Part shown: one piece after another, positions 1,362-21,242 of the stretch
Position numbering within the stretch: the stretch's first letter is position 1
How the letters are laid out: every line of letters begins with the position of its first letter
Source of the DNA: an uncultured virus (IMG/VR IMGVR_UViG_3300021599_000853)
Taxonomy: Duplodnaviria; Heunggongvirae; Uroviricota; Caudoviricetes
Length of the DNA: 64,000 bases
Virus record (IMG/VR): IMGVR_UViG_3300021599_000853
Span: 1-64,000 of that record
Strand: one strand, 5' to 3'
Made by a program: the position numbers and the translations under genes
The notes under the pieces: model-generated
What the model was told of the DNA's origin: nothing
The model's input: only the letters and a program-made list of their open reading frames with translations
Database searches by the model: none

Positions 1362-2339
1362 TTAAACACAAGCACCGTCTTGTAAAATTATTTCAACAAT
1401 ATCAGTTGATGATATGGGGATAGGTGAAAATGTGTCAGTAGTGGTATTAGTATACGTGTTACAATCAATAACAAATGAGTTAACAACTAATGATATATTA
1501 ACTTGAGATGATGTTGTTACAGTATAATCTATTCCGAGTGTTGTGCCGGCATGTGTTCCTTCCGCTTGTGACCCATTACTTACCGGTAATGATCCAACAG
1601 TTATTAAATAAAACGCAGGGGTTATTGATCCAATAGAAGTTGCCGCTGTTGTGTTATTTATAACAAAGAAATTATTACCCGATGTTGGTGTACTAGTTGG
1701 TGTTGCGGTAGGTGTAATTGTTGGTGTTGGTGTAATAGTTAATGTTGGTGTAATAGTTGGTGTAGGTGTACTAGTTGACGTAGGTGTAAGTGTTGGTGTT
1801 GGACATGTTAAACATGGACCAAGTACTGATGCGGTATTTGTACCGTTAAATAATATACTAAAATATGTGGTCCCAAATCCAATAAATGTTTGAGATCCAT
1901 TAAGGAATGAACTAAATGATGGATTTGTAAATGTTGTTGATGAACAGAATGTTGTACTATTACCCGTTACATTATATGTTGTCCCACTCCCCGCACAGAT
2001 ACCCAATTCATAATCTCCAGTATTTTGAACCACATCACCAACAAAATTACTTAATGTAGGTGTGGGTGTGTTACTTAATGTAGGTGTGGGTGTGTTACTT
2101 AATGTAGGTGTGGGTGTACTAGTTGGTACAGGACTTAATGTATTATCAATTAATGTTGCAGAACATGTAACACCGACTCCAGAAAAATATAAAACATATG
2201 TCCCAAAAGTGTATTCAGAAGTGTATGTATAAGGTATTGTTTGTGACCCTAAATTAAATGTTCCACCGGTATCGGGATTAAATGTTATTACCGCCGTTTG
2301 TCCACTATAATTACTACTTGTTAATTCTACTGTTCTCAT
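1362..2339 (-). CDS. Thr/Pro-repeat putative virion surface protein; paralog of 354..1343
   Basis: Same N-terminal domain, two PT-rich linkers, distinct C-terminal beta-rich domain. Confidence 0.7.
   Translation of the reverse strand: MRTVELTSSNYSGQTAVITFNPDTGGTFNLGSQTIPYTYTSEYTFGTYVLYFSGVGVTCSATLIDNTLSPVPTSTPTPTLSNTPTPTLSNTPTPTLSNFVGDVVQNTGDYELGICAGSGTTYNVTGNSTTFCSSTTFTNPSFSSFLNGSQTFIGFGTTYFSILFNGTNTASVLGPCLTCPTPTLTPTSTSTPTPTITPTLTITPTPTITPTATPTSTPTSGNNFFVINNTTAATSIGSITPAFYLITVGSLPVSNGSQAEGTHAGTTLGIDYTVTTSSQVNISLVVNSFVIDCNTYTNTTTDTFSPIPISSTDIVEIILQDGACV
2047..2117. repeat. 24-bp tandem repeat (about 3 copies) encoding TPTPTLSN
   Basis: ttacttaatgtaggtgtgggtgtg at 2047 and 2071, partial copy at 2095. 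Confidence 0.9.
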
Positions 2340-20445: not shown

Positions 20446-20898
20446 TTATATATTAATAATTATAAAATCAGATGATGAAAATGTTCCATTATTTACAGTG
20501 TAATCTATTTTAACTTTTGCGGTATATGGTTTAGTTGAAAAATCTGAAACTCTAAAAAGTCTATTATCCTCATCTTCCATAGAACCAACTAATCTATCGG
20601 GATCATCTTCAGCCGATGTAATACTAATAGAATTAATATCTAAATTTGGTATATATTTTCTAACACTTTCTCTTATTTCATCTTCAATAAGATTATATGA
20701 TACGACATCATTTTGTTCAAAAATATACTCATATATTCTTGTTCCAAAATCAGGTAGATAATATCTACTACCTTTTCTTGTTAGTAAAAGATGTAATAAG
20801 TTTGCTCTAACTTCTCTTTCAGGAGTTTCAGTCATTCTTAAAAAGTCACCTTTTCTACTATCTCTAAATGGATAATCTATACCATATGTTACTGCCAT
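20446..20898 (-). CDS. Baseplate protein, GPW/gp25 family
   Basis: LLLTRKGSRYYLPDFGTRIYEYIFE signature. Confidence 0.9.
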   Translation of the reverse strand: MAVTYGIDYPFRDSRKGDFLRMTETPEREVRANLLHLLLTRKGSRYYLPDFGTRIYEYIFEQNDVVSYNLIEDEIRESVRKYIPNLDINSISITSAEDDPDRLVGSMEDEDNRLFRVSDFSTKPYTAKVKIDYTVNNGTFSSSDFIIINI

Positions 20899-20937: not shown

Positions 20938-20963
20938 AAAATCCAGACATATGTCTGGATTTT
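20938..20963 (-). terminator. Intrinsic terminator-like palindrome
   Basis: Perfect 26-bp palindrome aaaatccagacat|atgtctggatttt with T-run on the minus strand, after the replication/RNR operon. Confidence 0.75.
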
Positions 20964-20984: not shown

Positions 20985-21068
20985 TTGGTTTTCACCCCCT
21001 GTATAACCAATCCTTAGATGCTCAAGGTACGCCTTGACGACAGACTAATCTTTGAGGGAGTCATCCAA
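20985..21068 (-). ncRNA. Candidate pseudoknotted structured RNA (family not recognised)
   Basis: GC-richer island with three stems plus complementarity between a hairpin loop and an upstream junction; G-U pairs favour the minus strand. Confidence 0.5.
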
Positions 21069-21242
21069 TCCTTTTTTTAAAGTGGTATTATTTTTTTCTC
21101 CTTTAGGTTCATATGGACAATGTCTACATCCATTACCTGATGATCCACAACAATACCCTCTTTCTATGTGATATCTTTCAGTGAAGATAACTTTATTACC
21201 ATCAAGATAATAATGTGTTCCTTCAATAAATTCATTACTCAT
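21045..21242 (-). CDS. Small Cys-rich protein, DUF5522-like
   Basis: YY...VIFTERYHIERGYCCG...GCRHCPY pattern. Confidence 0.75.
   Translation of the reverse strand: MSNEFIEGTHYYLDGNKVIFTERYHIERGYCCGSSGNGCRHCPYEPKGEKNNTTLKKGLDDSLKD

Follow-up and report, generated by a model that had tools for sequence, protein, structure and literature searches.

Here we report a small structured RNA, encoded by a 73-kb phage contig, that folds as a conserved, covarying, nested double pseudoknot (P1, a 7-bp PK1, P2 and P3) and that apparently represents a real, undescribed family of phage RNAs. At least 120 distinct homologous cores were parsed from phage and metagenome contigs with GC contents of about 25-69%, and we show that the module is a movable unit, carried in sense orientation by mRNA tails and by stable RNAs. 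We tentatively read it, with a probability of roughly 0.4, as a self-contained binding module (a putative aptamer or decoy) riding on abundant RNAs. What is new is the fold and its placement: a covariation-supported structure, with a helix order unlike those of the ribozymes and riboswitches compared here, is spread across very different phages.

In the window, by which we mean the whole 64,000-nucleotide stretch analyzed, the module comprises 82 nt with a conserved core at 21066-20991 (Table 1). A sequence-only reading had transcribed it correctly from the minus strand (21066-20985), and the elements listed there, a 5-bp P1, a UCAAGG/CCUUGA hairpin, UUGGUU/AACCAA and a CUCCCU/AGGGGG pseudoknot, can all form. 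The element is also the GC-richer island described at that stage, with 46% GC versus 29% for the window, 32% for the ribonucleotide reductase (RNR) gene and 27% for gp25. A 106-nt region around it has a folding z of -3.23, with none of 200 shuffles equally stable; in the minimum free energy fold of the window copy an unconserved alternative helix replaces P1/P4. Our covariance model (R1) scores this copy, the only one in its record (G000), at 90.9 bits. The last 22 nt of the DUF5522 reading frame overlap P1, PK1 and P2, an overlap previously missed. The strong terminator that had been placed just downstream is present as a terminator-like hairpin followed by U's, but "strong" is unproven because a consensus terminator scan called 0 sites at 20963-20938.

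Table 1. Coordinates of the RNA module and neighboring features in the window.
Feature	Position	Strand	Evidence
Whole RNA module	20985..21066	-	sequence, parse, covariation, covariance model score
P1 5' strand, GGAUG	21062..21066	-	4/5 P1 pairs change on both sides
PK1 5' strand, ACUCCCU, immediately 3' of P1 strand	21055..21061	-	R-Y first pair covaries
CAA junction, unpaired, near-invariant	21052..21054	-	base fixed in most search patterns; CAG in L070 class
P2 hairpin	21042..21051	-	3/3 pairs covary; length 7-87 nt across members, none in L624
GUCG junction; CG 21039-21038 is PK2 5' strand	21038..21041	-	PK2 pair variants
P3 hairpin, UCAAGG-CGUA-CCUUGA; loop CG 21031-21030 is PK2 3' strand	21022..21037	-	5/6 pairs change on both sides
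One-nt junction G and P1 3' strand, CAUCU	21016..21021	-	structural parse, covariation
P4 5' strand, UUGGUU; "PX"-type closing helix	21005..21010	-	structural parse of cores
AUAC strand ahead of PK1 3' strand	21001..21004	-	last base C, A or U
PK1 3' strand, AGGGGGU	20994..21000	-	parse, covariation
GAA 3' of PK1	20991..20993	-	present in 117/120 cores
P4 3' strand, AACCAA	20985..20990	-	parse, window sequence
Terminator-like hairpin, outside module	20938..20963	-	11 bp, -15.1 kcal/mol, then U's
DUF5522 ORF, 65 aa, stop at 21045	21045..21242	-	PF17653
Class II-like ribonucleotide reductase, 757 aa	21252..23525	-	TIGR02505 E 1.4e-36, below its cut-off; PDB 1l1l E 1.3e-10
Baseplate wedge gp25 gene, downstream	20446..20898	-	PF04965

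The strands follow one another in the order P1a, PK1a, CAA, (P2), GU, PK2a, P3a, PK2b, UA, P3b, G, P1b, (linker or P4), AUAH, PK1b, GAA. P1 is stacked on PK1, a 2-bp PK2 inside locks P3, and P2 and P4 are optional, giving an autonomous RNA domain of about 55-75 nt. PK1 has seven pairs because the A that the sequence-only reading left unpaired pairs with U. Across 55 of the 120 cores, picked by the analyst for diversity and short inserts, changes on both sides occur at 14 of 21 pairs (117 cells), a level reached by 0 of 500 shuffles and far above that of slid controls; relatedness among cores can inflate such counts, and the changes recur in low- and high-GC phages. Conservation and covariation among homologs, the test named when the element was first noted, came out in favor of the fold. 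By helix, such changes affect 4/5 pairs of P1, 2/7 of PK1, 3/3 of P2 and 5/6 of P3. The first PK1 pair is G-C in 39 of the 55 cores, A-U in 12 and G-U in 3, and the third, among 118, is U-G in 107, G-U in 4, A-U in 3, C-G in 3 and U-A in 1. The paired percentages are partly built in, since the core parse demanded pairing of P1, P3 and PK1; every scan fixed some bases, with PK1 left free in three scans and GUCG and CGUA in one.

A double pseudoknot had been anticipated, and two pseudoknots exist, but the second joins the CG of the junction to the CG of the P3 loop, and the P2 hairpin had been overlooked. This 2-bp PK2 is intact in 108 of 108 members and occurs in three variant pair types. Those members come from the pattern scan in which GUCG and CGUA were left free, where 108 of the 119 listed matches were members and 11 arose by chance. 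At the junction G29:loop C36 pair, 105 members have G-C, two have A-U (two distinct sequences) and one has G-U; at C28:G37, 105 have C-G and three, all of one distinct sequence, have G-C; neither is ever broken. Two of 500 shuffles of a 31-row alignment did as well. PK2 is less secure than the other helices because four distinct variant sequences underlie it, but judging from these pair variants it is likely real, and with P3 it would form a compact H-type pseudoknot. In a small class (L070/L085) that has neither P2 nor GUCG, PK2 can be read in a U-A/A-U form; the class was left uncounted because its members group within the normal copies, seem to have lost 9 nt by deletion and fold poorly (z +0.87). 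The originally proposed CUGU/ACAG pairing, in contrast to the CUCCCU one, which survives as PK1, shows no compensatory change, and 19 of 55 cores cannot form its U:A pair; its C and U lie in the covarying P2, and its A and G are already taken by PK1. The GU/AC half of that pairing could form, indistinguishably from a loop GUA/UAC alternative, and neither covaries.

About 15 junction bases are near-invariant, and invariant bases also lie within helices. The last base of AUAH is C in 98 of 118 cores, A in 10 and U in 10 but never G, a tally in which a few rows are register shifts and to which one scan pattern that barred G contributed. GAA, fixed by several search patterns and left free in two scans, is present in 117 of 120 cores. 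The peripheral parts vary: the linker before AUAH measures 2-69 nt, and P2 measures 7-87 nt or is missing (L624). By loose scoring, the strand 3' of GAA pairs with the linker in 84 of 120 cores (the "PX" closure, as in the window), with the 5' flank in 26 (the "P0" closure, which joins both ends) and with neither in 10.

The 382 locus records that yielded the cores include many repeats of the same contig and were drawn from 43 DUF5522 loci, the best 80 of 472 gp25 loci, and pattern scans of viral contigs, metagenomes and GTDB; five further variants and the L070/L085 class fell outside the 120-core parse. A gp25 homolog lies beside 61 cores; of the other 59, at least two (L349 and L514) are truncated members of the gp25-linked family. 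No shared neighboring protein family was found among 106 of 145 ORFs scanned at 21 loci, and recurrent neighbors were limited to genes for DUF7455 and HNH proteins, shared by a few GC-rich phages that are related to one another. Eleven of 14 virus records searched with the covariance model carry the module, ten as a single copy and one (G154) as two. A pattern scan of 185,579 GTDB genomes returned six matches, one of them true (L294, amid small phage-like ORFs); this pattern misses about a quarter of known variants because it requires a U before GUCG. Covariance model searches, with 31 candidates scored per genome, found no copy in 150 further genomes of the L294 phylum or in 151 genomes of the G171 phylum; two weak matches (22-26 bits), in genomes that had been chosen via chance pattern matches, were discarded. 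No cellular aptamer that the module might mimic appeared in the GTDB scan or in the two phylum samples, and blastn against isolated phages and plasmids gave short chance matches or none.

Two of these loci hold further features. About 1.2 kb downstream of the L294 copy, within phage-like sequence in a Saprospiraceae MAG, lies an Acb2/Tad1 hairpin-domain gene (1520-1828, minus strand), which was seen near one of the 21 loci examined, so that there is no enrichment. GC-rich, hairpin-rich non-coding stretches surround the module at L493 (~720-1260) and L576, with no Rfam match at E 0.05.

At the RNR-gp25 site the module is present in 37 of 80 relatives, these being the best 80 of 472 gp25 loci. 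When RNR kinds are assigned by C-terminal motif, with one representative of each checked, it occurs in 14 of 31 loci of NrdA type, 13 of 22 of NrdE-prime type, 8 of 19 nrdJ-like loci, 2 of 7 others and 0 of 1 too short to assign. It thus follows three kinds of RNR, two of them class I, and elsewhere occupies unrelated settings, which removes the link to nrdJ, DUF5522, cobalamin and nucleotides that had been drawn from the window alone. A gp25 tree of 37 rows implies at least 10 gains or losses, five of them forced by well-supported branches; presence is not clustered on the tree (58 of 500 shuffles as low), and empty sites resemble deletions or replacements without target duplication. The module is dispensable within this phage family. 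By a loose ORF test without a chance control, all 61 of the family cores tested, and 19 of 52 others, start within 15 nt of a stop codon or overlap one. A terminator-like hairpin with U's lies 3' of 58 of the 61 family cores (loose test), varying in sequence and not overlapped by the module.

Two loci carry a second form, type B, at the same site (L054 ~2820-2915 and L093 ~2810-2905, both plus strand). P1, P4, AUAU and GAA are as in type A and PK1 covaries, and the inner module is different, a 7-bp hairpin with a 9-nt loop followed by a variable part; neither example matches Rfam. It is as if the inner part were swappable. The RNR slot before gp25 is itself variable within this one phage family, at least three kinds having been exchanged across L044-L123 (class II-like with DUF5522, NrdA and NrdE-prime). 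Many DUF5522 homologs (L013-L042) contain a conserved GGGAGAAU...AUUCUCCC inverted repeat inside their 5' part.

Outside the gp25-linked family, 14 of 59 cores have tRNAs in their flanks, and 72 of 72 such tRNAs lie on the module's strand. The distances are scattered from 1 to more than 1000 nt, the nearest upstream tRNA, where present, being 7-370 nt away; a tRNA lies 1-39 nt from the module in L470, L483, L522, L567 and L600, and the L624 copy sits 9 nt before one. Seven distinct cores lie inside tmRNA genes, 3' of the tag frame; four of these match RF00023 (E 3e-16 to 2e-11), L262 alone above the cut-off. The complete 434-kb genome G153 has its sole copy in tmRNA and no gp25 match, and two relatives of the window phage have tmRNAs of 393-402 nt without the module, their copy lying behind the RNR gene. 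Three distinct cores (L249, L276 and L543) form a clean insertion of about 73 nt in P3 of RNase P RNA, recognized by RF00010 below its gathering score in L276 (E 3e-22) and L543 (E 5e-17) and by alignment in L249; in L522, P3 is bare and the module lies immediately upstream instead.

The window module has no match in Rfam 15 at the gathering cut-off or up to E 10, in agreement with the earlier impression that it belongs to no known family. Among homologs, Rfam matched tRNA, tmRNA, RNase P RNA and one HDV-like neighbor and no module-specific family, the tmRNA and RNase P matches spanning the module merely as an insertion. HDV ribozymes have the outer order P1a-P2a...P1b-P4-J4/2-P2b, which the module's P1a-PK1a...P1b-P4-AUAH-PK1b matches. 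The module further resembles HDV-like and theta ribozymes in being small, phage-borne and often near tRNAs, but it lacks the 3-bp P3 with its 7-nt L3 as well as P1.1, and its inner pseudoknot closes before P1b. HDV-like ribozymes require a catalytic C in J4/2, and theta ribozymes cleave no more than 5 nt from the 3' end of a tRNA (PMC10879173); the J4/2 equivalent here is AUAC, AUAU, AUAA or UUAC, with no opening catalytic C, an L3-like motif occurs in 4 of 120 cores, and there is no fixed adjacency to tRNA 3' ends. The hammerhead block CUGAnGA, which adjoins stems I and II (PMC10085705), was found in 1 of 120 cores with flanks when all six permutations were considered. The R-Y pair, GAA and further helix do resemble block G of hammerheads, including the non-circular permutations described in that source, but block C (CUGAnGA) and stem I are lacking, and the one supplement file of PMC10085705 that was searched holds no match to the module. 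For the GAAA that joins hammerhead stems II and III, Y-GAA occurs in 117 of 120 cores; the fourth base, tallied in 70, is U 46 times and A 20 times.

Twister, hairpin and glmS ribozymes were rejected on their core motifs (0, 0 and 4 of 120 cores) and for want of an Rfam match, as was the pistol ribozyme, which has no Rfam match and whose motif, in 22 of 120 cores, is too short to inform. The suggested likeness to the ZTP riboswitch fared no better: Rfam gives no match, the conserved junction motif occurs in 2 of 120 cores, and the module does not lie 5' of purine or folate genes. With ZTP and other pseudoknotted riboswitch aptamers it shares a junction and a downstream strand that form a pseudoknot, and invariant bases within helices; unlike them it has no shared motif and no expression platform, lies 3' of genes or outside mRNA and is almost absent from the cellular genomes scanned. 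Some copies sit where tmRNA has its pk2-pk4, with CUCCCU in register with the consensus pk2 strand of RF00023, but the rest of the module is unaligned, related phage tmRNAs do without it and most copies are elsewhere. GOLLD and ROOL RNAs are several hundred nt long and both are in Rfam, whereas the module is about 70 nt and grafted into other RNAs. They resemble it as structured non-coding RNAs near tRNAs, sometimes in phages, with a function likewise obscure (PMC5737381). No description of the module was found in the literature covered, which leaves out most subscription journals; a literal sequence search gave one irrelevant match. The searchable supplement files of PMC10690425, which do not include the alignments, hold no match to the motif; the module may belong to the unnamed candidates of that survey or of PMC5737381.

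Since neither neighbor nor position is conserved, we infer that function resides in the fold and is independent of the carrier. Invariance across phages of very different GC content, and hence probably of different hosts, would call for a universal target or an intrinsic activity. In our preferred reading the module would work in trans, recognizing a single conserved target with a pocket that the invariant CAA, GU, UA, AUA and GAA and the invariant PK1 pairs would build, while 3' UTRs, tRNA arrays, tmRNA and P3 of RNase P RNA would make it abundant and stable; placement in tmRNA, RNase P RNA and tRNA arrays fits such a need, rather like the expression of aptamers on tRNA scaffolds. Most plausibly the target would be either a small molecule or a host protein that is widely conserved and takes part in defense or stress signaling, in which case the module would be an RNA decoy acting as an accessory gene. 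We count in favor of binding the wide GC range without a common neighboring protein family, the RNase P and tmRNA insertions, the same-strand tRNAs, the mostly single copies, the patchy gain and loss without target duplication, the invariant helix bases and the inner swap of type B, all of which also fit self-cleavage or nuclease resistance to some degree. Against it stand the proximity to stop codons, which suits a role in cis, the window's DUF5522 frame reading into P1 and PK1, the lack of Acb2/Tad1 enrichment, and the failure of the cellular genome searches to turn up an aptamer that it might mimic. A more specific version strikes us as improbable: a natural RNA sponge that, in the manner of the Acb2/Tad1 proteins, would soak up an immune or alarm nucleotide of bacteria, mass-produced by grafting into tmRNA, RNase P RNA, tRNA precursors and mRNA tails, whose specificity would be retuned by the inner swap seen in L054 and L093.

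A new class of small self-cleaving ribozyme is unlikely but a serious competitor. It would cut polycistronic phage transcripts in tRNA arrays and at mRNA 3' ends and nick tmRNA and RNase P RNA harmlessly, and a putative cut site lies between the variable H of AUAH and PK1, where a single non-G base varies amid invariant ones. The size, the nested double pseudoknot and the near-invariant junction bases speak for it, helices linked by conserved unpaired bases being typical of such ribozymes (PMC6765202), as do the tRNAs 1-39 nt away in five loci and 9 nt away in L624 and the HDV-like match near the L567 copy. The fold contains no known catalytic core, though, and its distances to tRNAs are scattered, unlike the 5-nt limit of theta ribozymes (PMC10879173). 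P0-closed circular permutations had 0 matches in the viral collection, and cutting P3 of RNase P RNA brings no clear benefit.

We consider it rather more doubtful that the module is a nuclease barrier or stability element, comparable to an xrRNA, that shields the ends of messages or gives rise to a stable RNA from their 3' part. The compact, knotted fold and the start at or near a stop codon in all family cores and 19 of 52 others suit such a role; but a terminator-like hairpin already lies 3' of nearly all family copies, the copies in tmRNA and RNase P RNA sit in internal loops, out of exonuclease reach, and the helix order of flaviviral xrRNAs differs from that of the module. As a ribozyme or an xrRNA, the module would add a new class to a functional kind that is already known.

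A very unlikely explanation is a miniature mobile DNA element whose insertions fall at neutral positions beside or inside RNA genes. Patchy presence, scattered sites and the two copies in G154 are what such an element would produce, but comparison of filled with empty sites reveals no target duplication or terminal repeats, 10 of 11 carriers have a single copy, P2 and P4 hold inserts of up to 87 and 69 nt, and strict sense orientation, G-U pairs and pseudoknot covariation likewise count against it. Hardly credible, finally, is the original lead of a riboswitch or cis regulator of RNR or gp25 genes sensing a nucleotide or cobalamin, for which one can cite the aptamer-like conservation and a place after RNR that does not change within one phage family (61 of 120 cores adjoin gp25), but which has against it the location 3' of three kinds of RNR, two of them class I, the variable terminator that the module does not overlap, the unrelated contexts elsewhere, the single true hit among six in 185,579 genomes and the two empty phylum samples.

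Whether binding or another activity is at work, the copies lodged within tmRNA and RNase P RNA point to cargo domains borne by the housekeeping RNAs of phages, for which we found no precedent in the literature covered, most subscription journals lying outside it. The inserts coincide with Rfam scores below cut-off, which would change how "divergent" phage RNA genes are read. Phage RNase P RNAs lie inside tRNA arrays at L522 (1181-1458, minus strand), L276 (2471-2804), L543 (1476-1814) and L249 (~1440-1836), and are easily missed because their scores fall below the Rfam gathering cut-off. The phage tmRNAs at L243 (1594-2059, minus strand), L262, L337, L357 and L743-L745 have long tag frames, and ARAGORN missed the insert-bearing ones. 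At L567, a candidate HDV-like (theta-type) ribozyme lies directly 3' of a tRNA (1698-1761, plus strand; RF02682, E 0.01). A tRNA-like gene called with a four-base anticodon (8-nt loop) lies just before the long-insert module copy of L483 (114-188, plus strand), and a gene for an RF-1 domain protein lies within the phage tRNA array of L249 (728-1120, plus strand), beside the RNase P RNA.
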